DNA from: Polyangia bacterium
GTDB lineage: Bacteria > Myxococcota_A > Polyangia > JAAYKL01
Direction of reading: 5' to 3'
Assembly (NCBI GenBank): GCA_050304755.1
Contig: JBNLED010000113.1
Location: 4,376 to 68,375 of the forward strand
Length of the DNA stretch: 64,000 nucleotides
Under the pieces are notes generated by a model. It saw nothing but the letters and a program-made list of their open reading frames with translations, was not told the origin of the DNA and searched no databases. Shown one piece after another: positions 13,668 to 58,891 of this stretch (within the stretch, counting starts at the first letter, position 1; each line of letters opens with the position of its first letter). The position numbers and the translations under genes are program-made.

Positions 13668-13699
13668 AAACAGATCCTTTCACAGCGAGATCCATCGGG

Positions 13700-19153: not shown

Positions 19154-19275
19154 CTGTGCAATTGGTGCAAAAGATATACCAGGCGATTCGGCTTTTTAAT
19201 GTATTGAAATCATATAAAAATGGGTGTTCGGTTTGATTGGACCGACATTTAATGGCAGAAAAAAATTCCATCTGA

Positions 19276-19287
19276 GTCAATATTGAC
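19276..19287. promoter_or_regulatory. Perfect 12-bp palindrome GTCAATATTGAC in the AT-rich 200-bp island (19154-19353) upstream of the giant-protein gene block
   Basis: The palindrome is read directly from the sequence. It lies about 125-150 bp upstream of the first gene of the minus-strand block, in the only AT-rich stretch of this 19-kb region. A GTGCAAttgGTGCAA direct repeat at 19165-19179 lies nearby. Confidence 0.35.
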
Positions 19288-19353
19288 CCCAAAATGGTCC
19301 AAGTGTAAAAGTGGGATGTGCTTCAGATCCCCAAGGGTATGTAGCAGCCCTCA

Positions 19354-20064
19354 TTACTCTCTACAGCAGAGAACGCCCCCATAGGAGCCATCTGATTTTG
19401 TTACGTTAGCCGCCTCTTGGTAGCCATCATCTCCACATTCCCAGGGGGGTGTCTCGAGGCTGCCGCACAAGTTGTGACTGAAGACGTTCAATGGGCTGCA
19501 GGTTCCCCCATCAGGAGCGTCGCCGAGATCTCCGCAGCCGAAAACATCGTTGTTCCCTGCATCATCACAGCGCATGTTTCCCGAACCGGTTTGTCGTGTG
19601 ATGAAGATCATCTCGGGATCCCCCGTCACTGTCGCGCCGTCACATCCGGTGGCGCTGTTCGATGCGACCTCATCATTGCTGGTACAGACATGCCAACCCG
19701 GCGCACACAGATCCGAGACGTTGCATCCGGTTCCGTCGGAATTCTCGGCATCGTCGCCTGTTCCCCCGCACGAGGGCGCCACTACCGTAACCACCCCCGG
19801 CGTATCCCATGCACCGGAGCGGCCCGCTATATCGGGATAGGTATCGATATCAATGAAGCCCTCGCGTTCTCCATCAGCGCAACCGAGGGGGGTGCAGACG
19901 CCGCCGACACACTCTTCGCCGCTCGAGCAGATGTCTCCGGCATCGCCGCCGATCTCGCCGCAACCGGAGTCCCCATCGGAGTCCCCATCGGAATCGCCGT
20001 CGGAGTCACCGTCGAAGAAAAGAGTACCGACAATAGATAACGTCTCGGTCATTTTAGACTCCAT
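19354..20064 (-). CDS. Cys-rich secreted protein with a (DGDS)n acidic repeat, of unknown function
   Basis: The ORF has an AAGGA ribosome-binding site 8 nt upstream of ATG 20064. The product begins MESKMTETLSIVGTLFFDGDSDGDSDGDSDGDSGCGE... and contains numerous Cys and Gly residues. Confidence 0.55.
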   Translation of the reverse strand: MESKMTETLSIVGTLFFDGDSDGDSDGDSDGDSGCGEIGGDAGDICSSGEECVGGVCTPLGCADGEREGFIDIDTYPDIAGRSGAWDTPGVVTVVAPSCGGTGDDAENSDGTGCNVSDLCAPGWHVCTSNDEVASNSATGCDGATVTGDPEMIFITRQTGSGNMRCDDAGNNDVFGCGDLGDAPDGGTCSPLNVFSHNLCGSLETPPWECGDDGYQEAANVTKSDGSYGGVLCCRE

Positions 20065-20119
20065 GGGTAGTGTTCCTTTACAATCAGTGTGACTGTAAAA
20101 TTTCACCAGCACAAGATTA

Positions 20120-20590
20120 AATCAATCTGCCTTTTAGTGCAAGCCAAAAGGACGAAACTTTTACCAGTAATTTCAAAAATGTGCGAAGTGCCACCAGGAC
20201 TCTGAGGGCTCAGCGGGTCACCCACGCCTGCCACCCCCAGCCCCGCTTCGCCGTTGGCGAGGAACGCCAACCGGTGATCGTACGCGATGGCGAGCCCGTT
20301 GGCCGTCTCCCCCCCGCAGGCAGCAGGCCGAGGAGAGACATCGAGGGGATATCGTAGATGAGCAGCCCCGCTTCGCCCCCGTTCACATACAGGGTATCCC
20401 GAACCCGCCACCCCCAGGTCGGCGCGCCGCCGCCGCTCATCGACTCGGTGGCAGTGAGCGAGGGATTCGAGAAGTCGGCGACGTGATCGAGCCGGAAGGG
20501 ATTCCCGGAGACGATCAGGAGATCCCATCGTCGGGCCCTCGGGTCTCTCCTCGTTGAAACGCAGCTGATAAGGCCTACACTATATAGCAC
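20120..20590 (-). pseudogene. Frameshifted remnant of an LVIVD-repeat (beta-propeller) protein gene
   Basis: Two minus-strand frames each carry LVIVD-like units: TLYVNGGEAGLLIYDI and GLAIAYDHRLAFLANGEAGLGVAGVGDPLSPQ. Neither frame has a plausible start or full length. The fragment sits in a gap between convergent and divergent genes. Confidence 0.35.
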
Positions 20591-20628
20591 GGCCGGTTGC
20601 CTTACGGTGAACCGTTCCGGTATGGCAA

Positions 20629-21600
20629 ATGAAACTGCTCTCGTCCATTGCTGTTTGCGTCATTCGGGGGATTCTTCTTCTCCAAGCCGGATGTTCCCTC
20701 GAGCCCACAGAGGGGCACTTTGTTTGTCGTGACGAGACCGACTGTCCGGCAAACTGGCGCTGTGTCAAAGGTGCCTGCTATTCATCGAAGTTTCTGTCCA
20801 AATCGGAAGAGTTCAGTACAGACTTTGGGGACGTGGATGCCGACGTTGACGTGGATACTGACGGTGACGTGGATACTGACGGTGATGCGGATGCCGACAG
20901 CGATATTGATGCAGATGGGGACGTCGACGGTGACACCGGTTCTGACCTTGAGAGTGATATCGGGAGCGATGGGGATACCGACACGGATGGGGATGCTGAC
21001 GCGGATGGAGACACCGACAGCGACGCGGATGCCGATGGGGATATCGACAGCGATACAATCACCGATGTCGGGACTGGATCTGGAATGGCAGCGTGTTCCC
21101 GCTCCTGCATGCCGCTGTCCGACTGCGAGACACTGAACGGGACGGCCGTGGACGATGCGGTCTGCGAAACAGGGGCCTGCTGCAATCTAAGCGACCTCGA
21201 CCCGGCGGACTTTGACCAGTTCTGCACCGAGGGCGACTGCGGCGGGGACTGCGGGAATAAGGGCTGCAGCTCGTACTGCAATACCGATCAGAGCTGTCAA
21301 CTCGGCTGCGACGAGGGCGAGTGCATCTTGGTGAGCGCCGGGAGCGGCGAGAGCGGGATTGTCTGCGACAAGAAGGGGTGCCTGATCGCGAACTTCGGTT
21401 CCGGCGATATGGGCAGTATTTCGTGCGCCAAGGGCAATTGCACCGTCTATTGTCTTGGCGACGGAGGATGTGCCATCCTTGACTGCGAGGGCGGAGGATG
21501 CGCCATCGAGGGGTGCCCGGGTGAGGTGGAACCCTGCGGAGATAAGAACGGACTGATCTGTGGGATGAGCTGTCCTTTTGTGGCTCATCACGACCTGTAG
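20629..21600 (+). CDS. Lipoprotein with an acidic (D-x)n repeat linker and a C-terminal Cys/Gly-rich domain
   Basis: The N-terminus MKLLSSIAVCVIRGILLLQAGCS carries a lipobox. The repeat is DVDADVDVDTDGDVDTDGDADADSD.... The C-terminus is CxxGxC-rich (GDCGGDCGNKGCSSYCNTDQSCQLGCDEGEC). Confidence 0.65.
   Translation: MKLLSSIAVCVIRGILLLQAGCSLEPTEGHFVCRDETDCPANWRCVKGACYSSKFLSKSEEFSTDFGDVDADVDVDTDGDVDTDGDADADSDIDADGDVDGDTGSDLESDIGSDGDTDTDGDADADGDTDSDADADGDIDSDTITDVGTGSGMAACSRSCMPLSDCETLNGTAVDDAVCETGACCNLSDLDPADFDQFCTEGDCGGDCGNKGCSSYCNTDQSCQLGCDEGECILVSAGSGESGIVCDKKGCLIANFGSGDMGSISCAKGNCTVYCLGDGGCAILDCEGGGCAIEGCPGEVEPCGDKNGLICGMSCPFVAHHDL
20830..21060 (+). repeat. Coding tandem GAC/GAT-rich repeat encoding (D-T/V/A/G)n
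   Basis: The 6-12-nt periodicity (gatactgacggtgacgtg...) is visible directly in the sequence. Confidence 0.6.
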
Positions 21601-21626
21601 CTTGTCAACAATATCATATTGCCTGA

Positions 21627-21646
21627 CCGTCCATCGCCTTGGACGG
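21627..21646 (+). terminator. Hairpin CCGTCCA-tcgcct-TGGACGG, 27 nt downstream of the 20629-21600 stop; no T-tract follows
   Basis: A 7-bp perfect inverted repeat is seen in the sequence. A CCCC-TTC-GGGG (UUCG-like) hairpin also lies at about 21768-21778. Confidence 0.25.
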
Positions 21647-21966
21647 CGAAGGGGTCGTTAGCGATCGCTCGGTTTCGCAGGGCCCTGATAAAACATACTT
21701 GTTTTATAATTACTCTCATGTCTCACGTGTAAAACGCTTTTGTTTTACTAAATTGACACCTGACCCTCGCCCCTTCGGGGTCGATACGGACGACGACGCC
21801 GACGCCTGCCTCGTCATCGATTCATGAATCCTGGACGGCGTCGCCTCATCGAGCAGCGGCAGCGGCTCCTGCGGTTGTCAGGCCGTGGGGCAGCGCGCGC
21901 CTCGAATCAACGTCGTGAGAGCGTTACACGGGCTCCTCGGGGTATTCTAATCGGCTCGTAAATCGC

Positions 21967-23520
21967 TCAGCCCGGCGGCAGGCAGCCGAACACGAAGTCG
22001 ACGCGCTCCGTCTGTCCGTGCTTCAGGCGCTCGCAGGAGGCGGGGCAGAGCTCGGCGGTCAGGCACTGCTCGAGGGGCGTACTGAAGTCCGGCGCCGCCG
22101 TCATCCCCTTCCAGTACCACCCCTCCCCGGCGCCGCACTCGGAGGCCACGCCCCGCGCCGGGATATCCCGCGCGACATCGCCGTCCCGCTCCCTCGCCGC
22201 CACCAGGTTGCATCCCTTGGTGACCCCCGGCTGGCCCGGGACCGCCTCCCACGCCATGTGAAAGACGCAGGGGGTGGCCTCGGCGACGATCTCGTCGAAC
22301 GCTTCCGTCACGGCGGCGGGATCGGCGGCAGCGAAATAGTCCCGCTCGCCGTCGGCGCTGCCGCTGTTGGCGAGGGCGGTCATCACCTGCGAGAAAGCGG
22401 CCACCTCACCGACACCGACGACGAAGGTCTCGATCCCCATCTCGTCGAGCAGCCGCTCGATCGCGGCGGTGGCGCAGGCGTCGTCCACGCACTGGACCGG
22501 ATGGACCGGGGGGCTGCCGTCCAGAAGGCCGGTCGTACAGGTGTCCTTGTTCAGCGAGTCGTTGCAGTTGGGGGGACCGTCCGTCACGAGCAGAACGGAG
22601 GTCGGATTCTCCGATATCGTTTCGGGGAGGAGGAGCAGGTGTTCCTCCAGTGCCCACAGGAGGGAGTCGCAGATGGGGGCACCGCCGCAGGTGTCCAGCG
22701 TCATGAGATAATCCCGAATCAACGCGCCGTTGTTCAACCCCAGCGGCACCGGGATCTGATTGGCGGGAACGCATCGATCCATTATGTCGGAATCATCGCC
22801 GGGAATACAGTCGATGGACGGGAAGGGGATGAGCCCGAAGTTGATCCGGGTGTCCAGAGAGGTGACCATCTCCGACAGGGCCTCATCGACGATATGCTCG
22901 TAGGTGGAATCGCCAAAGGTAGACTGACTCATCGAAAGCGATCGATCGAGGAGGATCAGCAGGTTGATCTCCTGAAGCGCGACGGCCTGCGGAATGGCGC
23001 GACACCCTGCAGTGTCCGTGTCCGTGTCCGCGTCCGTATCCGCGTCCGTATCGACATCCGTATCCGCGTCCGTATCCGCGTCCGTATCCGCGTCCGTATC
23101 GACATCCGTATCCGCGTCGGTGTCCGCATCCGTGTCCCCGTCGGTGTCCACATCCGTGTCCCCGTCGGTGTCCACATCCGTGTCCCCGTCGGTGTCTACA
23201 TCCGTATCCGCGTCCGTGTCCACATCCGTATCCGCATCCGTATCCGCGTCCGTGTCCGCGTCCGTGTCCGCGTCCGTTCCGATCTCCGTGTCCATCTCCC
23301 CGGAGGCGACACAGGTTGCGGTTCCGAGGACCGTGGTGCATGCCATATCCTGGACTAAGCAGTCGTCCCAGTCCGTCCAGACGCCGTCGTCACACCGCTG
23401 GATCAGGTCACCGGCGCAACGGGTCTCCTCGTCCTCGCAATCCCCCGAGAGATCCACCGATCGGGTACACGCCGCGATCGTCAAGAGGACTATAGTCAAT
23501 GTTCCGATTCTTATGGTCAT
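21967..23520 (-). CDS. von Willebrand factor type A (vWA) domain lipoprotein with an acidic (DTDA/DTDV)n repeat
   Basis: The N-terminus MTIRIGTLTIVLLTIAAC carries a lipobox, and a GGAGG ribosome-binding site lies upstream of ATG 23520. The MIDAS motif is LLILLDRSLSMS (DxSxS), and a typical vWA body follows (VLLVTDGPPN). Confidence 0.8.
   Translation of the reverse strand: MTIRIGTLTIVLLTIAACTRSVDLSGDCEDEETRCAGDLIQRCDDGVWTDWDDCLVQDMACTTVLGTATCVASGEMDTEIGTDADTDADTDADTDADTDVDTDADTDVDTDGDTDVDTDGDTDVDTDGDTDADTDADTDVDTDADTDADTDADTDVDTDADTDADTDTDTAGCRAIPQAVALQEINLLILLDRSLSMSQSTFGDSTYEHIVDEALSEMVTSLDTRINFGLIPFPSIDCIPGDDSDIMDRCVPANQIPVPLGLNNGALIRDYLMTLDTCGGAPICDSLLWALEEHLLLLPETISENPTSVLLVTDGPPNCNDSLNKDTCTTGLLDGSPPVHPVQCVDDACATAAIERLLDEMGIETFVVGVGEVAAFSQVMTALANSGSADGERDYFAAADPAAVTEAFDEIVAEATPCVFHMAWEAVPGQPGVTKGCNLVAARERDGDVARDIPARGVASECGAGEGWYWKGMTAAPDFSTPLEQCLTAELCPASCERLKHGQTERVDFVFGCLPPG
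22990..23300 (-). repeat. Coding tandem 12-nt-unit repeat (gtccgtatccgc...) encoding (DTDADTDV)n
   Basis: The repeat is a direct sequence observation. Confidence 0.6.
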
Positions 23521-23850
23521 TTCACCCTCCCAAAAAACGCGACCTGTACGGTTGGAGTCCACTCATTCTTGTCCACCGCAATTGCGCCCCTCGAAGTCAA
23601 CCGAACCGGTCGAAAATTGGTTTCGCGATATCGCGCCGAGCCTATCTCACGAGCTGAAGCCTCAGAATCTGATGATACCATAATTCCAATGCTCTAGTAT
23701 TCAAACGTTCACGGTGTACCTCGAGCCACCACGGCTTTCGACGATCTCCTGTAAAATCCAAAAAAAGCCGGTTAAATTGGAAACTTTTTCGGCGATCCGT
23801 CCGAGAAGGAGGGCATGGCAAGAACCGCATCAACTTTCAGGGAGGTTTCC

Positions 23851-24795
23851 ATGTCCGAAAAACACATCAACATCATCGCCTGGCTGCTCCTGGCCGCGGC
23901 GCTCACCGCGTGCGCTTCCCGCAAGCCCCCGGAGGTGCTCTACGCGTCGGACGCCCTCTATCGGAAGAACCCTATCCGCAACGTCGCGGTGTGGGTGGAG
24001 ACCGAGGTGCGCTTCCCCCGCTGGGAGAACAAGGGCGCCATCGGCTACAGGGCGAGCCGGGGGGCCGCGGAGAAGGCCGCCCCCACCGTGTCCGCCGTCC
24101 TGATGGGCAAAGGGTATGCCGTCGTGGCGGCCAAGGCGGCGGCGGTGAGCTATCCGGCGCCGGTGGCCTTTCGCAACGAAGCCGGCGAAAGATGGGTGAT
24201 CGATTCCAAGGTGGAGGGCAAGTCCTGGACCGTCCCCCTGAACGAGCCGGTGTACGTCTTCGACGAGTCGTTCGGAACGCCGGAGACCGCCCGGTGTGTG
24301 CAGCTTCTCTCCGAGAGCGAGAGCCTCGCCCACTTCCGCCAGGACTATCGGGAGCGGGGGCTCGACCGGTCGGTGGCCGCCCGGCTGGCCCGGGAGACCG
24401 GCGCCGACACCCTGTGCCGGGTGTTCGTCTTCGGAAACACCACCACCGGCGGACGGAAGACGGCCAACGCCTTCATGAACGCCATTCCCTACGTCTCCGC
24501 CAGGGACGATGACCTGACCACGGCGCGCGTCTCGTGCTACGGCGCAAGTGACGGTGGGCTGGTCTTCTCCAATGAGGTCATGCTGGCGAGCAACCCGACG
24601 CTGCCGCTCCCCATGCTCTTCGAGACCCTGCTCGAACACCTTCCGGACGCGAACGAGCCCATGGATCCGACGGTCGTGCTCGCGCGGCTTCAACCGCCCG
24701 GCACGACGATCCTGGTGGATCCCTACCCCACCGTGTCCGCTCCCCCCGCTCCCGCGGAGACCGCCGCCGCCGAGGCGCCGGACGATGGCGAATGA
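23851..24795 (+). CDS. Lipoprotein of unknown function
   Basis: An AGGGAGG ribosome-binding site lies 6 nt upstream of ATG 23851. The N-terminus MSEKHINIIAWLLLAAALTACAS carries a lipobox. No recognised domain was found. Confidence 0.6.
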   Translation: MSEKHINIIAWLLLAAALTACASRKPPEVLYASDALYRKNPIRNVAVWVETEVRFPRWENKGAIGYRASRGAAEKAAPTVSAVLMGKGYAVVAAKAAAVSYPAPVAFRNEAGERWVIDSKVEGKSWTVPLNEPVYVFDESFGTPETARCVQLLSESESLAHFRQDYRERGLDRSVAARLARETGADTLCRVFVFGNTTTGGRKTANAFMNAIPYVSARDDDLTTARVSCYGASDGGLVFSNEVMLASNPTLPLPMLFETLLEHLPDANEPMDPTVVLARLQPPGTTILVDPYPTVSAPPAPAETAAAEAPDDGE

Positions 24796-24921
24796 GTTTC
24801 GTCTGTAGGTGCCCCTTGAGGGTGCCCGCGTCTGGGGGGTTTACTTGTAAGCCCCCTATTTCACCGGCCTCAAAAAAATGCTATCCTCTTGTAATATCAA
24901 ACCCGAAAAGAAAGGACTGGC

Positions 24922-26433
24922 ATGTCAAAGATAGGGTGGATGTTAATAGTTATTATAATGATCGGCTGGACGGCGGGTTGCGGCAGCGAGAACGGCGGCG
25001 CTGACAACAACGACGTTGATTCCGCGGCGGATGGGGACGCGGACGGGGACGCGGACGGGGACGCGGATGGAGACGGCGATGGAGACGGTGATGGGGACAC
25101 CGATACGGACGCCGACACCGATACCGACGCGGACACCGATACCGACGCGGACACCGATACCGACGCGGACACCGATACCGACGCGGACACCGATACCGAC
25201 GCAGATACTGACGCCGACACCGACACCGACGCGGACACCGATACCGACGCGGACACCGATACCGACGCAGATACTGACGCCGATACCGATACCGACGCGG
25301 ATACCGATACCGACGCGGACACCGATACCGACACGGACACCGATAGCGACGCCGATACCGACGCGGACAGCGACGGTGACGCTGATGCGGATACCGACGC
25401 CGATACCGACGCAGACACCGACACGGACACCGACGGGGAGTGCTCCAATGTGGGCGACGACGCCAACCCGGATCGGATCTGTATCCGGGGAAAGGCCTAC
25501 TACATGAACGGGATCAACGTGGCATGGGACCAATGGGACGGGGACCTGACGGGCTACAACGCAGCCAATTTCGAAGCGATGTTCGCCACCCTGGAGAGCT
25601 CCGGCGCCAACGCCGTCCGCTGGTGGTGGTTTACCGACGGCCTGTATCAGCTCTCGTATGACGGCCACATCGTTCAACCCCTGGCCCAGGAGATCTTCGA
25701 CAACCTCGACGTCGCGTTCGACGCGGCGGCCGCGCACGGCGTGCTCATCATGCCCTGCCTGCTGTCGTTCGACATCTCCAACTCCGGCATGACGTTCCTC
25801 GTGACCGAGGACGAGGCCCTGGACGCGTTCAACGAGCGGGTGGTGACCCCCATCGTGGAGCGCTACACCGACCATGACGGCATGGGAATCTGGGAGATCA
25901 TGAACGAGCCGGACTGGCTTCTCGAGAGCGAGGGCGGCGAGGTCTCGATGGCGGCCCTGCAGCGATTCCACGGGAAGACGGCGGCGGCCATCCACGCCGC
26001 GGATTCGGACGCTGTCGTCACCACGGGCATGGGGATGTTCAAGTACATGGTCGAAGGGGGGAACGCCGTTTCCGATGAGGCGCTGCAGGATGCCGCCGAC
26101 GGTGATCCCCTCGCCTTCTTCGATGTCTACCAGACCCACTACTACCCCTGGCAGCACGGCTCGGGGTGGAGCTATGAGCCCTGGATCAACACCAGCAGCG
26201 ATTGGCTCCCCTACGGCAAGCCGGTCATCATCGGCGAGTTCCCCTGCAAGGGGGAGCCCGGCGTATGGAGCAGCATGGAGATGCACACCGAGTCGGTTAC
26301 CCAGGGCTACGCGGGCACCTTCTGCTGGGCCTACTTCGACAACCGGGCCGACGACGAGGGGTACTGGCCGGACGCGAGGCCCGGCATCGAGGCCATCGCG
26401 GATCTCATTCCGGAGGCCATCACCGGCGAGTAG
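24922..26433 (+). CDS. Glycoside hydrolase family 5-like lipoprotein (mannanase/cellulase-type) with an N-terminal ([10 protein letters not shown])n acidic repeat
   Basis: An AAAGGA ribosome-binding site precedes the start. The N-terminus [22 protein letters not shown] carries a lipobox. The GH5 signatures are the acid/base motif IWEIMNEP and the nucleophile motif IIGEFP, with a preceding NAVRWW block. Confidence 0.8.
25028..25437 (+). repeat. Coding tandem repeat, unit about 18 nt (gacaccgataccgacgcg = DTDTDA), about 20 copies
   Basis: The near-perfect direct repeats are visible in the sequence. Confidence 0.7.
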
Positions 26434-26445
26434 AGAGGTCTGTCT

Positions 26446-26742
26446 TTACGGTCGCCAGGCGTACGGGGGAGGGATGTTGATATCTTCGATAACGGCGTTC
26501 GGCGCGTCGTAGTCCAGCAGGCCCTTGTAAGATCCTTCGTTCTTGTTCTCGAGGTAAACGATATCGCCGTAGAGCACCGCCGTGCCCGCGACCCCGGAGA
26601 CGCCGGTCTGGCCGTCATAATGATCGATGGGGAGATAGGTGGCCCTCACCTCCGCGTCGTCGGTCACCATAAACTCAGCGCTGTTCATGACCGTCAATCC
26701 GCCCACCACGGCGTTGCCGGAGACATCTGACAACCGCTGCAT
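26446..26742 (-). CDS. Small hypothetical protein (98 aa)
   Basis: The ORF fits exactly between the converging GH5 and fibro-slime genes, and its composition is non-repetitive. No homology was recognised. Confidence 0.3.
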   Translation of the reverse strand: MQRLSDVSGNAVVGGLTVMNSAEFMVTDDAEVRATYLPIDHYDGQTGVSGVAGTAVLYGDIVYLENKNEGSYKGLLDYDAPNAVIEDINIPPPYAWRP

Positions 26743-26856
26743 CCCGCCTGTCGGCGTTGCTCGTCGGTCAAATACCCCCAGTATTCTCCACTCCTCGCGC
26801 CTTGCCGGACGGGCGCAGCGATTGCCAGCTTGGTAACTTTATTTTGACCAGAGACC

Positions 26857-27993
26857 TTACACCACGATGACGGGGATGAGGCAGTCGATGTTGGTGGTGA
26901 TGTGGAAGTTGGACTCCGACGGCTGGCGCTCGGCGTGGAAGATGTCCATGGTGTAGCTCCCGCCGGCGGTCATGCCGATCTCCGCCGCGAGCTCGTCCAT
27001 ATCGATGGTCCCCGTCGTCTCGATGTGAACGCCCCCGAGGTCCATGGCCAGGTACCCGTCGATGAACACCCAGAGATCGTCGTCGCCGGTGAAGCTGAAC
27101 ACCTGGCCCAGCTCGTAGACGAACCGCATGTGGATCTCGGTGGTGAAGTAGTAGTTGTGGGCCTGGTACTCGTTGGTCCACCCCTCGTCGTCGGCCACCG
27201 GGTAGTAGTCGTTGTTGCGGTACTCGAAGAGATCGTCCCCCACGACCGTGAGCGGGAGCTCCCGCTCGAAGGTGTAGTTGATCCCATCGATCGAGCGGTA
27301 CCACTGATCGAAGGTCTCGGCGCTCGTGATGCTGACGTGCCCGTCCGCGCTCCCGATGCTCGAGGCGAATTCCGGCTTCTGGTCCACGCCGAGCTGCGTC
27401 TCGACGAGCCCGGTGGCCAGCGCACAGCAATGGTCACCGAAATCCTCGTGCTGATACGAAAAATCGCGGACCACCGCCTTCAGCATGGGCTCGCACTCCT
27501 CCGCTCCGCTGTCCGGTCCCGCGTCGGCGTCCACGTCCGCGTCTACGTCGGAATCCACATCCGTATCGACGTCCGTGTCCACGTCGGTGTCCACATCCGT
27601 ATCGGTATCCGTATCCCCGTCCGTATCGGTATCGGTGTCCGCGTCCCCGTCCATGTCCGTATCCGTGTCCCCGTCCATGTCCGTATCCGTGTCCCCATCC
27701 GCGTCCGAGTCGCTGTCGCCATCCGTGTCGGCGTCCGAGTCGCTGTCGCTGTCCGCGTCGGTATCCGTATCTCCGTCCGCATCGACATCCGAGTCGCCGT
27801 CACTGTCGGCGTCGCCCTCCGCGCCCGGTTCCCCCGATCCCGTATCGGCGGTCTCCGCGTCGTCGGGATCGGAGCCGGAGGGGGGAACGTAGGCCTCTCG
27901 TACGATGTTGGGAACTGTTGTATCGGAGCACCCGAGCCCCAGAATCACCGCGAGACTCATCCCCGCTATTACATTCATGGCAAGTCGTATCAT
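26857..27993 (-). CDS. Fibro-slime domain lipoprotein with an acidic (DxDxD)n repeat
   Basis: The start was chosen at ATG 27993 (MIRLAMNVIAGMSLAVILGLGCSD, a lipobox). The fibro-slime (PA14-like) motifs are NDYYPVADDEGW...HNYYFTTE...FSFTGDDDLWVFIDGYLAMDLGGVH...YTMDIFHAERQPSESNFHITTNI. Confidence 0.8.
   Translation of the reverse strand: MIRLAMNVIAGMSLAVILGLGCSDTTVPNIVREAYVPPSGSDPDDAETADTGSGEPGAEGDADSDGDSDVDADGDTDTDADSDSDSDADTDGDSDSDADGDTDTDMDGDTDTDMDGDADTDTDTDGDTDTDTDVDTDVDTDVDTDVDSDVDADVDADAGPDSGAEECEPMLKAVVRDFSYQHEDFGDHCCALATGLVETQLGVDQKPEFASSIGSADGHVSITSAETFDQWYRSIDGINYTFERELPLTVVGDDLFEYRNNDYYPVADDEGWTNEYQAHNYYFTTEIHMRFVYELGQVFSFTGDDDLWVFIDGYLAMDLGGVHIETTGTIDMDELAAEIGMTAGGSYTMDIFHAERQPSESNFHITTNIDCLIPVIVV
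27530..27830 (-). repeat. Coding tandem GAC-rich repeat encoding (DSD/DTD/DVD)n
   Basis: The repeat is a direct sequence observation. Confidence 0.6.
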
Positions 27994-28061
27994 TACATCG
28001 AACAGTATATACGATATGGGCCGCGGATATCTAATACAAACCTCTGTCCAGGCGACGGCCT

Positions 28062-29120
28062 TCACCCGGGGAGGGTGTCGGCGCCCGCGCAGCCGCCGGG
28101 GGACAACGGTCGCCGGGTGTGGGGACCGCAGTGACATCGCGGCCCGAGCCTGCACCGCGGCGGCGCCTCCGAGGCGGCGCCTTCCGGTGGCGCAGAGCGG
28201 GCATCGCCCCCGAGGCCGGCGTTTCGCAGCGCCGCGGCCCGCTCCCGTATCCGCTCCGATCGGGTACGCCGGAGGTCCCGGGCCAGGCCGACCGCCCAGA
28301 GCGCGCGGATGAGCCACTTGGTGGGATCCCACTGCCACCACCGCACGCCGTTGCGATAGTCGCCGGGAAAGGCGTGATGAAAGTTATGGTACCCCTCGCC
28401 GAAGGTCAGCAGGGCGAGGACGGGATTGTCCCTGGCGGTGTTCTTCTCCGAATACGGCCGGGCGCCCCATTTGTGGGCCAGGGAGTTGATGAGGAAGGTG
28501 GTCTGGTGGCACACCACGAGGCGCAGAAACCCGACGAGGATCAGCGCGCCCGGGATGTCGCCGATGATCGCGCCGACGGCGATGGGGACGAGGAGGTTCA
28601 GCGCGACGCCGAGCCGGAGGTAGAAGCGGTGTTGAAACCGGACCACGGGATCCGCCATCAGATCCTTCACGTTGGAGAAATCGAGGGGCGCGCTCGGATA
28701 GTCCCGGAGCATCCACCCCATGTGGGAGAACCAGAACCCCCGCCGGGCGGAGTACGGATCCCGATCGTTGTCATCCACGTAGCGGTGGTGACGCCGGTGG
28801 TCCGAGGCCCACTTGAGGATCGAGTTCTGTAGGGCGAACGCGCCGCCCAGCGCGAACAGCAGGCGGACGACGAAACCGGCCCGGAAGGTCTTGTGGGACC
28901 AGAGGCGGTGGTACCCGGCGGTGATGGAGAGGTTGTTGAGCGCGGCGAACAGGGCGAACATCCCCCAGGTCGCACCGTCGAACCCGTGATACCACCCGTA
29001 CCAGGGGACCGCCACCGCGGTGACGAGCAGCGTTCCGGCGAACGTGATGATGACCTCCCAGCGCCTGGGCGCGGCGGCGAAGGCGCGGGATGAAAGCGCG
29101 CTACGGGTTTCCTGTGACAT
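28062..29120 (-). CDS. Acyl-CoA/acyl-lipid delta-9-type fatty acid desaturase (membrane di-iron protein), with an approximately 60-aa Arg/Pro-rich C-terminal extension
   Basis: The three histidine boxes are HRLWSH, HRRHH and HNFHHAFP. Four hydrophobic helices are present. Confidence 0.8.
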   Translation of the reverse strand: MSQETRSALSSRAFAAAPRRWEVIITFAGTLLVTAVAVPWYGWYHGFDGATWGMFALFAALNNLSITAGYHRLWSHKTFRAGFVVRLLFALGGAFALQNSILKWASDHRRHHRYVDDNDRDPYSARRGFWFSHMGWMLRDYPSAPLDFSNVKDLMADPVVRFQHRFYLRLGVALNLLVPIAVGAIIGDIPGALILVGFLRLVVCHQTTFLINSLAHKWGARPYSEKNTARDNPVLALLTFGEGYHNFHHAFPGDYRNGVRWWQWDPTKWLIRALWAVGLARDLRRTRSERIRERAAALRNAGLGGDARSAPPEGAASEAPPRCRLGPRCHCGPHTRRPLSPGGCAGADTLPG

Positions 29121-29269
29121 GAGAACACGTCCTTTCTTCGAGACACACCGGAGGCAGGCTCCCGTGTCGTCAAGGTGAATCGTCGCAGCCCCCGGTCATG
29201 GAATTGTCATCCGCCGTCGAATCCGGGGAATCGAAGTGTCGAGGCTTCGAACGAGCTCCAGGACACGAC

Positions 29270-30778
29270 CTACAGTGTAAAAGTGTACTTGACAGTGACA
29301 TCCCTCGAGGATTGGGGAAAGCGCGCGGACCGGACCGCGTCGGTGGCGCATCGGCCGATCTTGCTCCCGGCGAGCGCCCCGGTGGCGAAGGCCTTGGACA
29401 CCCGACCGTTTCGGGCGATGGTGACGGCCATGACGATGGCGCCCTCCCCTTGACCGCAGCGCTTCACCTGATCGGCCACCCGGCGCATTCCCGATTGGAC
29501 GTCCGCCCGTGTCAGCGGCCCTTCCTTTCCGTCCGCCGTTTCTTTTTTCGACGGGGCGCGCTTCATGGGGGAGGATGCTACGGGCGACTTTTCCGACGAC
29601 GCCTTGGCGCGAATCCCCAGCAGGGCGTCCAGATCATCGATCGCCTGGACTTTCACCGGTGCCGGTTTCGGGTCCGGCGGGGGAGCGTTTCGAGACGGGC
29701 GGCCGCCTCTGCGGCTTTGGTGACAGGGGCGTGTGCCGTCCGGTCCGCCCGCCTTCGCGCAGGCAAGGCCGCTTTTCGACTCGGCGCCACGGCCTCCTTC
29801 GAGCGAGGGGTCCGCGTCGATGCTCGAATCGTCCTCGGTTGCGTCGCGGTCATTCCGGGCCGCCCGAACCAGGGCGAGCTCCCGGCGGGTCTCCTCGAGC
29901 TCCTTTCTCAGCTGGTAGACGGGCTCGGGGGTCGACTCGGCGAGCAGCGTGACCAATTGGTCGTATCGGTTCTGGAGCTCCAGGATCTGCCGCGCCGCCA
30001 GCGCCTCCGACTCGTCGTCGGCGTTCGATTCGAGAAGAAAAATCGCTCCGACAGCGACGGACACCGCGACGGCGAGCCCCGCCCCGACGAGCCCCCACCG
30101 CCGTCCGTTCGAGAGCGGCGCGACGCTCGGCAGCAGCGGCCCAGACCACCATTCCGAATCCACCGGGGGCGGTTTCACCGGCGGCGGCGGCGTGCTGGAG
30201 GTGAGCGCGTGGATGTCCGACATGGCGTCGGCGACCTCGTCCTCTATTTTGTACGGGCTGGTCGAGAGGTGCTGGCGCATGATGTTCTGGCCGACCATGG
30301 AAAACAGGACAGAGTCTTCGTTCCGCCGCGCCGCGGCCGAAGGAGGCGCCCCGCCCGACCGGCGGGGGGGCGATTTCGATGCGACACCGACATCGAAACT
30401 GATGAGCTCCCCCATATCATCGTCGAGGTCGTACTGATCGAGGTCAACATACAATTTCAGGTCTTCGTCGGCCTCGTCCGATGATGCGCTCTTCCGATCC
30501 ATCCGCCGCCCCTCCTTCTCCGAGCGATCGGACAGTCCGTCCGTACGGGAATTCCGTCTACTGCTCATCGCGCTGGCCACTTCATCGAGCACCTCTCTTT
30601 GCTGTTCGGGTGCAAGCGCCCTGTTCAAATCGATGAGGTTCTCGGAACCGCCCGTTTCGCCCTTTCCCATATCAGAATGACGGCTCATTCCCGCCATACC
30701 GGATGTTTTCAGATGGTCCTCACTCATCTCTTGTATCGATTTTTCAGCCCCTGCATTTCCCTTATTATGGCTAGTCAA
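29270..30778 (-). CDS. Single-pass membrane protein with a C-terminal AgmX/TonB-C-like domain
   Basis: The transmembrane segment is WGLVGAGLAVAVSVAVGAIFLL. A Pro-rich linker (PPPDPKPAPVKV) follows. The C-terminal approximately 90 aa (GAIVMAVTIARNGRVSKAFATG...VTVKYTFTL) resembles the TonB/AgmX C-terminal fold. Confidence 0.5.
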   Translation of the reverse strand: MTSHNKGNAGAEKSIQEMSEDHLKTSGMAGMSRHSDMGKGETGGSENLIDLNRALAPEQQREVLDEVASAMSSRRNSRTDGLSDRSEKEGRRMDRKSASSDEADEDLKLYVDLDQYDLDDDMGELISFDVGVASKSPPRRSGGAPPSAAARRNEDSVLFSMVGQNIMRQHLSTSPYKIEDEVADAMSDIHALTSSTPPPPVKPPPVDSEWWSGPLLPSVAPLSNGRRWGLVGAGLAVAVSVAVGAIFLLESNADDESEALAARQILELQNRYDQLVTLLAESTPEPVYQLRKELEETRRELALVRAARNDRDATEDDSSIDADPSLEGGRGAESKSGLACAKAGGPDGTRPCHQSRRGGRPSRNAPPPDPKPAPVKVQAIDDLDALLGIRAKASSEKSPVASSPMKRAPSKKETADGKEGPLTRADVQSGMRRVADQVKRCGQGEGAIVMAVTIARNGRVSKAFATGALAGSKIGRCATDAVRSARFPQSSRDVTVKYTFTL

Positions 30779-31002
30779 TCGACCTTGGTTAACAGATCAG
30801 ATTTTTTGGACCGTTCACGAGAGGTATTTATCGATTTGATGGGAAATCGAACGATTCAATCGGCTTATGGCGAACGCGATGTTTTCGTCCGGCCATAGGG
30901 AGGAGGAGGAGCGCGTTTGTCGAGAGTGAAAACGATACGTCTTCGCTGGAATCCCGCTTGTTCTCTGGGCGCGGACGGGCGGGAGCGCTCCCTGTTTCCG
31001 TT

Positions 31003-31034
31003 TTGATGAAGGCAGCGGCAAATTAGTATACAAT
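31003..31034 (+). promoter_or_regulatory. Candidate sigma70-type promoter TTGATG-N18-TATACAAT upstream of the kinase gene
   Basis: The motif was read directly from the intergenic sequence. It lies about 55 nt upstream of the GTG start at 31089. Confidence 0.3.
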
Positions 31035-31088
31035 ATCGGAGGTCACGGCATCGATGAGGCCGGTGACAGAGAAAAGGCGGGAGCCGCG

Positions 31089-32756
31089 GTGAAACAGAAG
31101 ACGATCACCCATTCGTGCGTACAGGAGACGGTCCCCCGGCGACCGCCCGACGGCGGGTTCCGATCCGAGCTCTCCTCCGGCATGATCATCGATGAACGCT
31201 ATGAGCTCATCGACTCCCTCGGCCAGGGGGGGATGTCGGAGGTCTTCTCCGCGATGCACCTCACCCTCCGGGAGCCCCGGGCCCTCAAAGTGCTCCCCCA
31301 ATCCTGTGGGGACGACGAGCTGGCGGTTGAGCGATTCACCCGGGAGGCCCGCACCACGGTCCGGCTCAAGCACCCGAACATCGTGGAGGTGAGCGACGCG
31401 GGGGTGGATCAGGCGGGGCACCGCTTCATCGTCATGGAGCTCCTCCGGGGCGAGACCCTCGCCAATTGGATGAAGCGCACCCCCGTGGCGGATCGCGGGG
31501 AGGCCTATATCCGGGAGGTGCTGACCCTGCTGCTCGCGGTCTGCGAGGGGGTGACGGCCATCCACACGGAGGGAGTGCTCCATCGGGATCTGAAACCCTC
31601 CAATATCTTTCTCCACCGGGACGAGGAGGGGCACGTATGCCCGAAGATCCTGGACTTCGGCATCGCCCGGGATCTTCGGTTGGGGGAGGACAAGCTCACC
31701 GTCGCGGGCCAGATCACCGGCAGCATCGACTACGTGTCGCCGGAGCAGATGGAGGAGAAGGAGCCTGACTTCCGGGCCGATGTCTATTCCCTCGGGGTCG
31801 TGTTGTACAACGCCCTCACCGGGGCGACCCCCATGGGGGACACCACCCGGGCCATGATCGTGGTGCGCTCCGTCGACCACAACTACCGGATCATTCCGCC
31901 CAGCCGGCACAACGGGCAGGTGCCGCGATACCTGGATCGCATCACCGCCAAGGCCCTCGAGCGGAACCCGGACAAACGCTACGCCACCGTGAAGGAGCTC
32001 GCCGAGGCCATCGCGCCGCTCCCCGTCATGCACCCGGTGGCGCAGGAGCGCGTCGTCCCGAAGCGCCGGCCCCTGGTCTGGGCCGCGGTCACCGCGGTGC
32101 TCCTGGCGGTCACCGCGGGAGGGGGGCATCTGTGGCTCCAGCGGAGGCACGGACCCCGGGCCGCGGTCGGCGCGCCGTTGAAGACCCCTCCGGTCATCGC
32201 GGCGGACGCCCGGTCTCCGGTTTCAAAGACGCCGATCGCCAAGCCGCCGAGCCCGGAGGCGCCGACGCCGGGAGCCGTCTCGCCCCTCCAATCCCCCGTC
32301 GAACAGGAGCCGCCGCGGCGGACGCCGACGGCCCCTCGTCAGCGTCACCGCGCCATGAAGCCCCCATCATCGAAGCGGGACGCGCCGGACGTGGAGGACC
32401 TCGTAAACGAAGGGTACGCCGAGCTCGGGAACACGAACTACCGAACCGCCGCCGCCCTGTTCGAGCAGGCCGTTGATCAGAACCCGAGGGCGGCCCGCGC
32501 CTGGTTCGGCCTGGCCAGGGTCGCCTTTGAGAACCGGGAGTACACGACAGCCCTCGACAAGATCGACCGGGCGATCCGGTATCGGGATCAGGCGCGGTGG
32601 CGGATCTTCCGGGGGGAGATTCTCCTCGCGAAGGGGGACCGGGACGCCGCCGCCGAAGAGTGGCGACGGGTGCTCGACCGCTCCCCGGAGGACTCGCGGG
32701 CTCGGAAGGTGGCCAACAACCACCTCCGGAAAATCGGCGCGTCGTCGGGAGAGTAA
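31089..32756 (+). CDS. Hanks-type Ser/Thr protein kinase with a C-terminal TPR region
   Basis: The kinase motifs are GQGGMSEV (Gly loop), ALKVL, HRDLKPSNIF, DFGIAR and SPEQ. A transmembrane segment is LVWAAVTAVLLAVTAG. The C-terminal TPR-like segment is AAALFEQAVDQNPRAARAWFGLA.... An alternative start lies at 31182. Confidence 0.85.
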   Translation: MKQKTITHSCVQETVPRRPPDGGFRSELSSGMIIDERYELIDSLGQGGMSEVFSAMHLTLREPRALKVLPQSCGDDELAVERFTREARTTVRLKHPNIVEVSDAGVDQAGHRFIVMELLRGETLANWMKRTPVADRGEAYIREVLTLLLAVCEGVTAIHTEGVLHRDLKPSNIFLHRDEEGHVCPKILDFGIARDLRLGEDKLTVAGQITGSIDYVSPEQMEEKEPDFRADVYSLGVVLYNALTGATPMGDTTRAMIVVRSVDHNYRIIPPSRHNGQVPRYLDRITAKALERNPDKRYATVKELAEAIAPLPVMHPVAQERVVPKRRPLVWAAVTAVLLAVTAGGGHLWLQRRHGPRAAVGAPLKTPPVIAADARSPVSKTPIAKPPSPEAPTPGAVSPLQSPVEQEPPRRTPTAPRQRHRAMKPPSSKRDAPDVEDLVNEGYAELGNTNYRTAAALFEQAVDQNPRAARAWFGLARVAFENREYTTALDKIDRAIRYRDQARWRIFRGEILLAKGDRDAAAEEWRRVLDRSPEDSRARKVANNHLRKIGASSGE

Positions 32757-32757
32757 C

Positions 32758-33612: not shown

Positions 33613-33785
33613 TGGCCGCCCGGTTTCGATGGCTGCTCGCGGGCGCGTGCGCGCTCTGGTTTTCGGGGTGCGGCACCTTCGGCGATGACTTCGATGACGT
33701 GAGACCGGAGCATCGGGCCGAAGCAACGGACGCTGACGGGATCGACGGGGGCCTCGACGCGGATCGCGACGCCGGCCGGGAGTGA
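33612..33785 (+). CDS. Small lipoprotein (57 aa)
   Basis: The ATG overlaps the upstream stop codon (tgATGg). The N-terminus is MAARFRWLLAGACALWFSGCGTF. Confidence 0.3.
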   Translation: MAARFRWLLAGACALWFSGCGTFGDDFDDVRPEHRAEATDADGIDGGLDADRDAGRE

Positions 33786-33879
33786 CGCGGCATCTCCAGT
33801 TTCCAGAATCGCGAAGGGGAAGACGGGGACCGGACGGAAAGAGCGTGACAACCCCCCGGGAACGGGTAAATATCTGCGG

Positions 33880-35432: not shown

Positions 35433-35518
35433 CACTTTCGTGTGGCTCCTTTTTAATCATGTAAATTCAAATAGATACAGTTATTCTAATTAGAGTATTA
35501 GAATTCTAGACGAAAAAC

Positions 35519-56974: not shown

Positions 56975-58891
56975 TTACCACCCCAGCTCGGCCTCGAGAC
57001 GCTCGGCGAGGGTGTCGGCCATGGCCCGATGGGCGGCGAGATCCGGGTGGCCGTCACATCCCGACCAGTTGATGGCCCCGAGCTCGATCTTCTCCACGTT
57101 GGCGTCCCCCAGGTCGGCGATGATCTCATCAATCTCGTCGCTGAAGGCATCGCCCGCCGTGTTGACGGCGCAGAGGATGTAGGCGTCGGGATAGTAGCCC
57201 CGAAGGCGGGTCACGAATGCCACGTACGCCTCGATATAAGTGTCGCGGTCGACACCGCCGGCGAAATCATTGGTGCCGAGATTGATGACGATGGCGTCGG
57301 GGATGTAGTCGGCGTAGTCCCAGCTGGTCTGGCTGTCCTCGGGGAGGGCGTAGCCGTAGAGGTCCGGCAACAGGTTCTCGGTGCCGCCGTCCGTGTTCGC
57401 CGCCATCCCGTTCCCTGACCACGCCTCCACATGGGCGACGGCCCCCAGCTGCCGCGCCGCCAACGGGCCGTAGGCCGCCGACCCGATCTCGGTGGCCGCG
57501 GAGAACGGGCAGCCGTCATTACCGTAGCCCGCCGATATGGAGTCGCCGATGATCTCGATTCTCCGGCTGAAGGGCGGGGGGGACTCGATGAGGCGTCCGT
57601 TCTCGGCCGCGAACCCGTGGAACCTGACGACGCCGAACATCGCCTCCGGATTTCGATAGAGCTGGACATCGTGCTCCCCCGCCGACAGGTCCTCGGCGAC
57701 GCGGTAGGTCTGCGGGGTCGGATCGCTGCTCCACTCCCACCCCTCGGTGGTGATCTCGGTATACGGCTCGCCGTCGAGCACGACCTGAAACGTGATGGCG
57801 CCAGCGCCGGAGAGCTGAACGTCCAGCGCGTCCCCCTCGAAGCGCACGCCGAACCCGCAGTTCGACCACGCGCACCCCGGGGCGTCCGGATCGCGCCGGT
57901 CGAAACGACCGAAGTAGTGAACCTCCGCGGTCGGGCCGAGGTCGGACGTGTCGGTATCGATTTCCGTGTCGGGGATCTCCGTATCGGGGATCTCCGTATC
58001 GGGATTCTCCGTGTCAGTGATGTCTGTGTCGGGAATGTCCTCCGTGTCGGGGACATCCTCCGTGTCGGGAACGTCCTCCGTGTCCCCCACAGCACCCTCG
58101 GTCAGGAAGATATCATCCAAATCGACGACGACCCGCCCCTCACCGCTGTACAGAATGATTCCGGCGACCTGGGACAGGTCCACATCTTGCGAGACCGATG
58201 AGATATCAATATCAAAGGCCTGGTAGTCACCCTCGAGCTCGAGGGTCACCGACGATCCGAAGTTATATTCCGCCCCGCTCACGAAGACGAGCGCCAGCGA
58301 CACATCGGCCGCCGGCTCGCCCTTGGCCCGCATCGACAAACGGGTCGCCGCGGTCCAGTCCCTCGTCTCGTGCGAATAGAAGTAATACACCACCGCGCCC
58401 CAACCGTCCGAGGTGACCACGTCTGCCCGGAGGTGGTTGGGGGCGGAATACGGATCCTCGTCGCTCTCGGAGATACTCGAGCTGCCGTCCCATGCCTCGC
58501 CCGAGGCGTAGGGGACCGTCTCGCCGTCGTAGAGTATCGTCCCGGTGGGGGGCGCCGCCGTATCCCGCCCGGAGTCACCGACTTCATCCGAGTCGACCGA
58601 ATCGGTCTCCTCGGGATTGTCGGTCTCCTCGGGGATATCGGTCTCCTCGGGATTGTCGGTCTCCCCGTCAGGGGTGTCGGTCTCCGCGTCAGGGGTGTCG
58701 GTTTCCGCGTCGGGGACGTCAGTAGCGCCCGGGTCGTCGCTCTCCTCATCGGTCTCCTCATCGACCGAATCACCTCCCGGGTTCCCAACGGATTCACTCT
58801 CCGAGGCGCTGTCCGTGTCGGTGTCAACGTCTCCCTGGTCGTCATTGCATCCGAGCATCAGCAGAAGCACGATTGTCCAAAGACATTTCAT
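56975..58891 (-). CDS. SGNH/GDSL-type hydrolase lipoprotein (carbohydrate esterase-like) with two acidic (ETDxP/EDVPDT)n repeat tracts and an N-terminal beta-sandwich
   Basis: The start ATG 58891 gives MKCLWTIVLLLMLGCND, which carries a lipobox. The GDS block is IEIIGDSISAGYGN. The catalytic DxxH is CDGHPD. An INLGTNDF block is also present. Confidence 0.75.
   Translation of the reverse strand: MKCLWTIVLLLMLGCNDDQGDVDTDTDSASESESVGNPGGDSVDEETDEESDDPGATDVPDAETDTPDAETDTPDGETDNPEETDIPEETDNPEETDSVDSDEVGDSGRDTAAPPTGTILYDGETVPYASGEAWDGSSSISESDEDPYSAPNHLRADVVTSDGWGAVVYYFYSHETRDWTAATRLSMRAKGEPAADVSLALVFVSGAEYNFGSSVTLELEGDYQAFDIDISSVSQDVDLSQVAGIILYSGEGRVVVDLDDIFLTEGAVGDTEDVPDTEDVPDTEDIPDTDITDTENPDTEIPDTEIPDTEIDTDTSDLGPTAEVHYFGRFDRRDPDAPGCAWSNCGFGVRFEGDALDVQLSGAGAITFQVVLDGEPYTEITTEGWEWSSDPTPQTYRVAEDLSAGEHDVQLYRNPEAMFGVVRFHGFAAENGRLIESPPPFSRRIEIIGDSISAGYGNDGCPFSAATEIGSAAYGPLAARQLGAVAHVEAWSGNGMAANTDGGTENLLPDLYGYALPEDSQTSWDYADYIPDAIVINLGTNDFAGGVDRDTYIEAYVAFVTRLRGYYPDAYILCAVNTAGDAFSDEIDEIIADLGDANVEKIELGAINWSGCDGHPDLAAHRAMADTLAERLEAELGW
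57945..58085 (-). repeat. Coding tandem 15-18-nt repeat (ggggatctccgtatc...) encoding (PDTEI/EDVPDT)n
   Basis: The repeat is a direct sequence observation. Confidence 0.6.
58590..58730 (-). repeat. Coding tandem approximately 21-nt repeat (gtcggtctcctcgggattgtc...) encoding (ETDxPEETDxP)n
   Basis: The repeat is a direct sequence observation. Confidence 0.6.

Follow-up and report, generated by a model that had tools for sequence, protein, structure and literature searches.

Among the outer-membrane lipoproteins of E. coli, about half carry disordered linkers of more than 22 amino acids (aa) on which Lol-dependent sorting relies; artificial GS linkers of sufficient length can take their place (10.1101/2021.01.05.425367). 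The Ser-Asp repeat (SDR/R) region of the staphylococcal Clf/Sdr adhesins, in which Asp alternates with a second residue over a length of tens to hundreds, has been proposed to project the functional domain away from its anchor point or to reach across the cell wall, and SdgA/SdgB glycosylate it (PMC3794999). In Bacteroidota, the lipoprotein export signal (LES), C-S-(D/E)2 or K-(D/E)2 at positions +2 to +5, is both required for, and enough to bring about, exposure at the surface and packing into vesicles (PMC5080379, PMC6222051). The interdomain linkers of carbohydrate-active enzymes (CAZymes), which consist of Pro/Thr or Ser/Gly boxes, join catalytic or binding modules and are hypervariable in length and composition between orthologues. 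Here we describe strictly alternating Asp-x (D-x) tracts in four neighbouring putative lipoprotein genes (A–D) on a 64,000-nt stretch of DNA, hereafter the window, from a Polyangia bacterium (GenBank assembly GCA_050304755.1, contig JBNLED010000113.1, positions 4,376–68,375, forward strand). Most likely these tracts are the lineage-typical form of an ordinary linker: a feature that is real, statistically extreme and mechanistically ordinary, with no new molecular system behind it.

The tracts were located by six-frame translation, as strict alternation of Asp and x in a frame that continues into the downstream domains, and in all four genes they proved to be in frame with recognisable domains of this kind. 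The genes and their acidic segments, with arrays reported by Tandem Repeats Finder (TRF), are as follows.

Gene A, 20629..21600, + strand: lipoprotein candidate, Cys22; small Cys-rich module, acidic tract and C-terminal Cys-rich domain.
Gene A acidic segment, 20830..21057, + strand: aa 68–143 (76 aa), net charge -36; strict D-x at 20830–20937 and 20968–21057 (36 + 30 aa); TRF arrays of 18 nt with 65–86% matches.
Gene B, 21967..23520, - strand: putative lipoprotein, Cys18; Cys-rich module, D-x tract and VWA-like domain.
Gene B acidic segment, 23011..23298, - strand: aa 75–170, net charge -47; strict D-x at 23011–23274 (88 aa); 12/24-nt units with 80–86% matches; longest exact internal repeat 46 nt.
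Gene C, 24922..26433, + strand: putative lipoprotein, Cys20; 151-aa low-complexity tether; predicted GH5 endo-beta-1,4-mannanase-type (beta/alpha)8 domain, aa ∼180–503.
Gene C tether, 24982..25434, + strand: aa 21–171 (151 aa), net charge -72, without Lys/Arg and without large hydrophobic residues; strict D-x at 25030–25437 (136 aa).
Gene D, 26857..27993, - strand: putative lipoprotein; ∼143-aa tether; fibro-slime/PA14-like domain at 26884–27159.
Gene D tether, 27499..27927, - strand: aa 23–165 (∼143 aa), net charge -59; strict D-x at 27520–27819 (98–100 aa); 24/30/36-nt units; longest exact internal repeat 30 nt.

The closest functional category for these tracts is that of the disordered linkers of Gram-negative lipoproteins (E. 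coli RcsF, Pal and NlpD, and those of Borrelia and Neisseria). Like such linkers, they lie between the lipidated Cys with its sorting residues and a globular domain, have no predicted structure and are poorly conserved between orthologues, and the gene C tether fits the description of a disordered linker in being longer than 22 residues and free of secondary structure in an AlphaFold2 (AF2) model. Unlike the E. coli linkers, the tracts are far longer (143–151 aa in C and D, where the E. coli threshold is >22 aa), keep a strict dipeptide period, consist of ∼50% Asp and are encoded by tandem repeats, and in A and B the tract is used between domains instead of at the anchor. Linkers of the CAZyme kind are found in a further window gene (F, below) and in the G/S/T-rich homologues of gene C. 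Classical CAZyme linkers are, however, neutral and rich in Pro, Thr and Ser, and beside them the strict Asp alternation and extreme charge of the window tracts are unusual.

In sequence, the closest analogue is the staphylococcal Ser-Asp repeat. Its 18-nt units, GAY TCN GAY TCN GAY AGY, are comparable to the GAC ACC GAT ACC GAC GCG of the window tracts, and the only NCBIfam matches to the tracts are the MSCRAMM models SdrC, SdrD, ClfA and ClfB, at E 1e-10 to 1e-26 and 37–91 bits against cut-offs of 999–2500, with only the repeat region matched. As judged from the sequences, this likeness is compositional and not homology. The staphylococcal proteins are Gram-positive and anchored to the wall by LPXTG, with the repeat C-terminal to the ligand domain, with Ser as the only x residue and with SdgA/SdgB adjacent; in the window tracts x is Thr > Ala > Gly > Ser, the predicted anchor is an N-terminal lipid, LPXTG is absent and no glycosyltransferase was detected among the window genes scanned.

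Tracts, carrier genes and codon pattern

When the residues of each protein were shuffled 2000 times, the longest D-x run was 12–16 aa and never exceeded 16. At the DNA level, TRF reports arrays of 12, 18, 24, 30 and 36-nt period at the tracts. An earlier reading of the window, made from the sequence alone and hereafter the sequence-only reading, had described near-perfect tandem repeats, with about 20 copies of one unit in gene C. The 12–36-nt arrays are real, but their matches are 65–91%, and the gene C 18-mer GACACCGATACCGACGCG is present as 5 exact copies plus 13 in-register copies at ≤2 mismatches, all inside 25096–25353 (18 matches at ≤2 mismatches, compared with 0.03 expected by chance). 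Tract-spanning open reading frames (ORFs) of the opposite strand and other frames, encoding (VS)n or (RV/RI)n, were considered and rejected as coding, being without signal peptides or domains and mirror images of the D-x frame.

Exact internal repeats one unit apart are longest in C (71 nt), followed by B (46 nt), D (30 nt) and A (21 nt), and we read them as traces of recent local duplication. Since all repeat unit sizes are multiples of 3 nt, only in-frame changes of length are possible. Between genes, the longest identical string is 9–21 nt, and the choice of Thr codon differs (ACC in C, ACG in B and D), which argues that the tracts expanded independently and without recent gene conversion; the inter-gene recombination envisaged in the sequence-only reading finds no support in these figures.

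In all 194 dipeptides of tracts A–D, the codon of the first residue starts with GA, and in 193 of them it ends in C or T; the x codon shows variation at each of its three positions. Asp consequently outnumbers Glu 193:1 at the acidic positions, though GAG is common in the other genes of the genome, and this pattern indicates that Asp itself, beyond mere acidity, is maintained. Raised use of GAT, considered as a sign of selection against perfect repeats, was rejected, the GAC fraction of the tracts (0.61) being only slightly below that of the background (0.70) and of the remaining sequence of the same genes (0.69).

Lipobox and signal peptidase II calls were pattern-based (charged n-region, hydrophobic h-region, lipobox [LVI][ASTVI][GAS]C). 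Lipobox-type signal peptides were found in genes A, B, C, D and F, with the sites LLQAG↓C, TIAA↓C, WTAG↓C, LGLG↓C and LMLG↓C, respectively, of which that of A is non-canonical (Gln at -3). From the Cys onward the sequences read CSLEPT in A, CTRSVD in B, CGSENG in C, CSDTTV in D and CNDDQG in F.

The cargo of gene C is predicted to be a GH5 endo-beta-mannanase-type barrel. Its C-terminal ∼325 residues match PDB entries in phmmer (5y6t, E=7e-23; 3vup; 2c0h), the top 16 Foldseek matches of its AF2 model are all GH5 beta-mannanases (TM score 0.75–0.79, normalised to target), and the NEP acid/base and GEF nucleophile motifs are present (WEIMNEPDW, VIIGEFPC). Pfam PF00150 is not reached at E≤0.01 in gene C and is precomputed on 8 of its homologues. 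The tract begins ∼16 aa past the lipobox Cys, and AF2 gives residues 16–171 a predicted local distance difference test score (pLDDT) of 35–50 with no DSSP elements, next to a confident TIM barrel for residues 180–503. Gene D matches the fibro-slime model TIGR02148 (E=4.7e-29, 100.7 bits, cut-off 45) and PA14 (E=4e-7, 30.3 bits, cut-off 24); its tract starts ∼40 aa past the Cys, and the disorder of these 143 aa is judged from composition.

In genes A and B, a Cys-rich module of 45–70 aa separates the lipobox from the tract. The likeness of gene B to VWA is weak (Pfam VWA E=0.0028, 18.3 bits, below the gathering cut-off of 23.8), though a DRSLS motif of the metal ion-dependent adhesion site (MIDAS) type is present; the gene also matches NCBIfam CglB in part, at 35.6 bits against a cut-off of 200, and has no PDB sequence match. 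No Pfam or family match was found for gene A. Its N-terminal Cys module (20692–20829, CSLEPTEGHFVCRDETDCPANWRCVKGACY) recurs in a metagenome-assembled genome (MAG) of Polyangia (locus L117, 481–1119, CSLTPQEGQFSCLTDEDCPDGWVCNSEGDGHCY), where it is followed by a 108-aa (DT)n tract and a short CC-containing C-terminal module like those in gene A and in another locus, L087.

Two further genes had been counted with these four.

Gene E, 19354..20112, - strand: Cys-rich protein; (DGDS)4, 16 aa, at 19966–20013.
Gene F, 56975..58891, - strand: putative lipoprotein with CE2_N and SGNH esterase domains; TRF arrays of 15/18/21 nt.

Gene E has no recognisable signal peptide or lipobox and no family match in Pfam or NCBIfam, and its membership in the set is not shown by its sequence. 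Gene F has two acidic, Pro-containing linkers of another type (ETDxP/DTExxP, period 5–6 residues), at 58538–58846 and 57923–58096, which mix Asp and Glu (25 D/16 E in the first, 15 D/8 E in the second); no strict D-x run in it exceeds 8 aa, and past the lipobox it has directly only a short stretch, DVDTDTDS. The sequence-only reading had listed at least six lipoprotein genes, each with 60–140 aa of Asp-x directly after the lipobox and followed by vWA, GH5, fibro-slime or SGNH domains. Four genes (A–D) fit the repeat description, whereas E contributes only 16 aa and F a different linker. Lipobox-type signals are found in all but E, and the position directly after the lipobox applies to C and F and roughly to D but not to A and B, where the Cys-rich module intervenes. 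As to the domains, GH5 (C), fibro-slime (D) and SGNH (F) are borne out, and vWA (B) weakly, below the cut-off.

Domain homologues and spread of the layout

For the gene C domain, 42 of 45 homologues were fetched, which are 49–75% identical to it except for one distant match at 31%. Around the ∼325-aa domain, the length of these proteins ranges from 318 to 533 aa (n=42), and nearly all full-length members start with a lipobox, after which comes low-complexity sequence with no compositional relation between one protein and the next: mostly G/S/T-rich, DDT- or DDS-rich in three (P0001, P0023, P0036) and made of PMPSGDP repeats in another (P0030). The homologues of gene D behave similarly, 106 of 120 having a lipobox and a 20–99-aa linker (median 52) rich in T/G/S/D/A, while a D-x run of ≥12 aa is found in only 5 of 120. 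Elsewhere, the orthologous domains of C and D are thus preceded by unrelated low complexity of 0–200 aa, and a homologue of the gene B VWA domain (L087, 1537–2751, 33% identity) combines a lipobox with a DT/GT linker that is shorter and irregular. A conserved domain combined with a freely varying spacer is the signature of a tether, of which the D-x form would be one state. The linker or stalk role suggested by the sequence-only reading is upheld by these orthologues, which keep the lipobox with unrelated linkers, by the lack of AF2 structure at residues 16–171 of gene C and by cargo that fits display.

To follow the layout across genomes, one genome per species from 185,579 species was scanned for (GAY RBN)16, that is (D-x)16, which gave at least 115 loci; the counts in this and the next paragraph are those among the matches listed. 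From ∼36 genomes labelled Myxococcota, Polyangia, Nannocystaceae, Enhygromyxa, Kofleriaceae or 'Deltaproteobacteria' MAG came 60 of the 115 loci. Myxococcota are only a few per cent of the species in the scanned collection. A lipobox Cys lies ≤80 aa upstream of the (D-x)≥12 tract in 64 of 76 Myxococcota ORFs, at a median distance of 16.5 aa, compared with 19 of 110 neighbouring coding-like ORFs without a tract (Fisher p = 2e-20). In other taxa, a lipobox-type Cys is present in 13 of 54 tract ORFs. Thr is the most frequent x residue (822), followed by Ala (485), Gly (451) and Ser (314).

The cargo of 56 Myxococcota proteins consists mainly of enzymes for extracellular polymers and phosphate esters, with CBM6/35/13, GH43, GH2, GH53, arabinofuranosidase, rhamnogalacturonan lyase, pectinesterase, PETase-like, PhoD, 5′-nucleotidase and metallophosphoesterase domains. 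Because such polymer substrates stay out of the periplasm, this cargo argues, indirectly, for surface or vesicle display. The genomes with the same architecture include complete long-read chromosomes, such as OZ245034.1. The succession of lipobox, ∼16 residues, (D-x)n and exo-enzyme is a common layout in Myxococcota and is not peculiar to this cluster. The shared linker had been taken as a mark of one coordinated secretome set; being a lineage-wide habit, found in unrelated lipoproteins, it is no evidence of co-regulation, and in the window their strands alternate (E-, A+, B-, an unrelated lipoprotein and C+, D-), so that they fall into at least four transcription units instead of a single operon.

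Six loci from Alpha-, Beta- and Gammaproteobacteria (L005, L007, L011, L013, L045, L088) have very long (DA)n/(DG)n tracts, the longest listed being 1053 aa in Phyllobacterium phragmitis. These tracts sit in large non-lipoproteins, directly past a Gly/Ala-rich hydrophobic segment, and appear to represent a different architecture. Literature searches with repeat strings (DTDTDT and similar) returned deoxynucleotide notation only, and those on myxobacterial Asp-rich lipoprotein repeats or low-complexity linkers returned nothing relevant, which is no proof that such repeats are undescribed.

Roles considered for the tracts

It is probable that the (Asp-x)n tracts are intrinsically disordered, strongly polyanionic tethers. 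In genes C and D, the tract would join the N-terminal lipidated Cys to the globular domain, and in A and B it would join the small N-terminal Cys-rich module to the C-terminal domain. Export and lipidation would proceed by the usual lipobox pathway, of which we see the signal-peptide sequence and infer the rest. An unstructured, protease-poor and self-repelling Asp-x chain, of 143–151 residues and a net charge of -59 to -72 in C and D, may then act as a flexible spacer with which the enzyme or binding domain could pass the envelope or surface layer and reach polymeric substrates at a distance from the membrane, and it may also ease lipoprotein sorting, as do the disordered linkers of E. coli outer-membrane lipoproteins. 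Each tract would have been made in place by tandem duplication of 12–36-nt in-frame units followed by divergence, with every second residue held at Asp by selection and x free to drift among Thr, Ala, Gly, Ser and Val. The D-x form would then be one of the compositions taken by a hypervariable tether that is common among uncultured and marine Myxococcota.

Several points weigh against so plain a role. Surface exposure is argued from the type of cargo only, the taxonomic proportions of the scan come from a sample of loci, and low AF2 confidence is weak evidence of disorder where the alignment is uninformative. In A and B the tract lies away from the lipid anchor and is strictly an interdomain linker. 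The near-absolute preference for Asp over Glu (193:1) exceeds what a spacer defined purely by charge and disorder would need, and may point to something particular to Asp, such as the binding of cations, a preferred conformation or a modification. Together with the tight coupling to the lipobox, this Asp-specificity leaves some room for a more specific role.

Of such roles, the binding of cations or minerals is a real if tentative possibility, and one that is compatible with a spacer. The Asp side chains would bind Ca2+/Mg2+, metal or mineral surfaces, and could thereby form a bridge from the protein to lipopolysaccharide (LPS) or exopolysaccharide, make the stalk stiffer, or serve as a store or scavenger of cations. 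The use of Asp, not Glu, at 193 of 194 acidic positions and the net charges of -36 to -72 with no Lys or Arg speak for it, and Ca2+ is bound by (Asp-Y)n sequences in the shell matrix proteins of molluscs and by the (DSS)n of phosphophoryn. Each gene also contains 3–9 DxDxDG-like strings, but these arise automatically from D-x alternation with x = Gly, and the Pfam and NCBIfam scans brought up none of the thrombospondin type 3 (TSP_3), EF-hand or RTX models at E≤0.01. Moreover, since orthologues of the same domains are served by uncharged G/S/T-rich linkers, cation binding is not needed for the function of the cargo.

We consider it unlikely that the tracts are contingency loci, in which slipped-strand mispairing would produce heritable variation in length or antigenicity and sequence would be exchanged between genes. 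A susceptibility to slippage, as claimed in the sequence-only reading, is plausible in view of the exact internal repeats of 30–71 nt, one unit apart, left by recent local duplication, of unit sizes that are all multiples of 3 nt, and of four homologous pairs among the fetched loci, all unequal in tract length (48/60, 82/62, 50/26 and 144/22 aa). The staphylococcal Ser-Asp regions, the closest analogue, vary in length between strains. Actual variation is nevertheless not what the available assemblies present, as three of them are identical over the tracts: window 22344–29121 (6778 bp), which spans tracts B, C and D, is 100% identical to JBNLBU010000403.1 of GCA_050303475.1, and the Logan assembly of SRR36185838 is 100% identical to window 26832–29121, tract D included. 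Closer comparison of tract length is limited by the relatives at hand, since exact-protein look-ups returned only these identical copies (GCA_050303475.1 and Logan SRR36185838) and the best relative of the GH5 domain is 75% identical in the protein search and 68% in the metagenome scan, with no close comparator in the collections. In addition, a unit identity of only 65–91% would damp slippage, the lack of frameshifting unit sizes precludes on/off switching, and the 9–21 nt shared between tracts, with their differing codon choice, speak against exchange between genes.

A function as a sorting signal is rather more doubtful. The strong association of (D-x)n with the lipobox in Myxococcota (64 of 76 against 19 of 110 among the matches listed), the cargo of enzymes for extracellular polymers and the precedent of an acidic export motif in Bacteroidota (PMC5080379, PMC6222051) make the idea reasonable: like the LES, the tracts are negatively charged segments past the lipidated Cys, and LES carriers are surface-exposed, glycan-degrading lipoproteins. 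Among the matches listed, Asp or Glu is found at +3/+4 in 33–39% of the Myxococcota D-x lipoproteins, but only 13 of 64 proteins, compared with 2 of 19 controls, have the (D/E)2 pair at these two positions, a weak signal. The LES has 4–5 residues, fixed at +2 to +6, and is position-critical at +2 to +5, whereas the window tracts have 66–136 residues and start 16–70 residues past the Cys (a median of 16 in the scan, 45–70 in A and B). A polar residue or Lys followed by (D/E)2-3 at +2 to +5 is absent from A–D, and only gene F fits this description, loosely, as the sole window gene with (D/E)2 at +3/+4. Most homologues of C and D, furthermore, have no acidic linker and retain the lipobox.

Less likely again is a broader role, in which the Asp-x repeat would be a Myxococcota-wide functional module of surface- or vesicle-displayed lipoproteins, either as a cation-bridged polyanionic brush or as a recognition element for a surface-export or vesicle-loading route, LES-like in its logic. 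The very strong association with lipoboxes, the extracellular cargo and the 193:1 preference for Asp over Glu would be compatible with such a module. Low-complexity repeats are known to cause short-read misassembly, and the source is a MAG; the sequence-only reading, too, named misassembly as a risk. That the tracts are assembly artefacts or non-coding repeats in a fortuitous frame is nevertheless hardly credible, because B, C and D are identical in GCA_050303475.1 and D also in Logan SRR36185838, each tract lies in the reading frame that links a signal peptide to a recognised domain, and ∼36 other genomes among the matches listed, complete long-read chromosomes included, share the architecture.

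Genomic setting and significance

The window, which derives from a MAG, is chromosomal DNA of an uncultured member of the Myxococcota and has pnp, dnaG, rpoD, a purF-like gene, Ser/Thr kinases and kinase-sigma54-activator fusions on board. Its RpoD is 75–79% identical to MAG proteins labelled 'Deltaproteobacteria', 'Myxococcota' or 'Polyangia', and the nearest family-named matches, from Anaeromyxobacteraceae and Polyangiaceae MAGs, reach only ∼60% identity; the presence of Nannocystis and Pseudenhygromyxa among the fibro-slime homologues of gene D is a second taxonomic pointer. In two related loci (L131 and L132, RpoD 83–86% identical), the dnaG-rpoD-purF order is kept and the lipoprotein cluster is not at the syntenic place. 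Compared with window 30000–41000, these loci have a kinase-sigma54 activator or a pilQ-like secretin in place of the lipoprotein cluster, and in L132 a D-x protein begins 2.3 kb downstream of rpoD.

Other features of the window lie around the tract genes. The region 18000–22000 has a GC content of 0.58, compared with ∼0.65 around it, and genes A and E, unlike their neighbours, have a GC content at third codon positions (GC3) below 0.72; this low-GC patch may have been acquired more recently or may evolve faster. On the - strand, 1609–19153 is occupied by a tandem series of four giant, Cys-rich lipoprotein candidates of 1089–1817 aa. The candidate at 5452–10851 has 9 Dicty_CTDC repeats and a Laminin_G_3 domain, and in those at 1609–5325 and 10398–13667 an initial lipobox and CxxCKxDSDC...C knot lead into an acidic S/T/D/G linker of irregular sequence. 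A small ORF (26446–26838, - strand, 98–130 aa, GC3 0.75) lies between genes C and D, which converge on it; this ORF is annotated as a gene in GCA_050303475.1 and has no family match on record. The 1189-aa protein encoded at 53391–56960 on the + strand, with two Sulfate_transp and three STAS stretches, looks like an internally duplicated or fused SulP transporter.

For annotation, the tracts matter in that they provoke spurious 'MSCRAMM adhesin' profile matches and inflate low-complexity matches. If the reading of the tracts as disordered polyanionic tethers is right, they would also offer a natural series of polyanionic spacers with a defined period for display engineering. In the Myxococcota themselves, the signature of a lipobox, ∼10–25 residues and (Asp-x)n would, on the same reading, pick out candidate surface-tethered or vesicle-borne exo-enzymes in uncultured members of the phylum.

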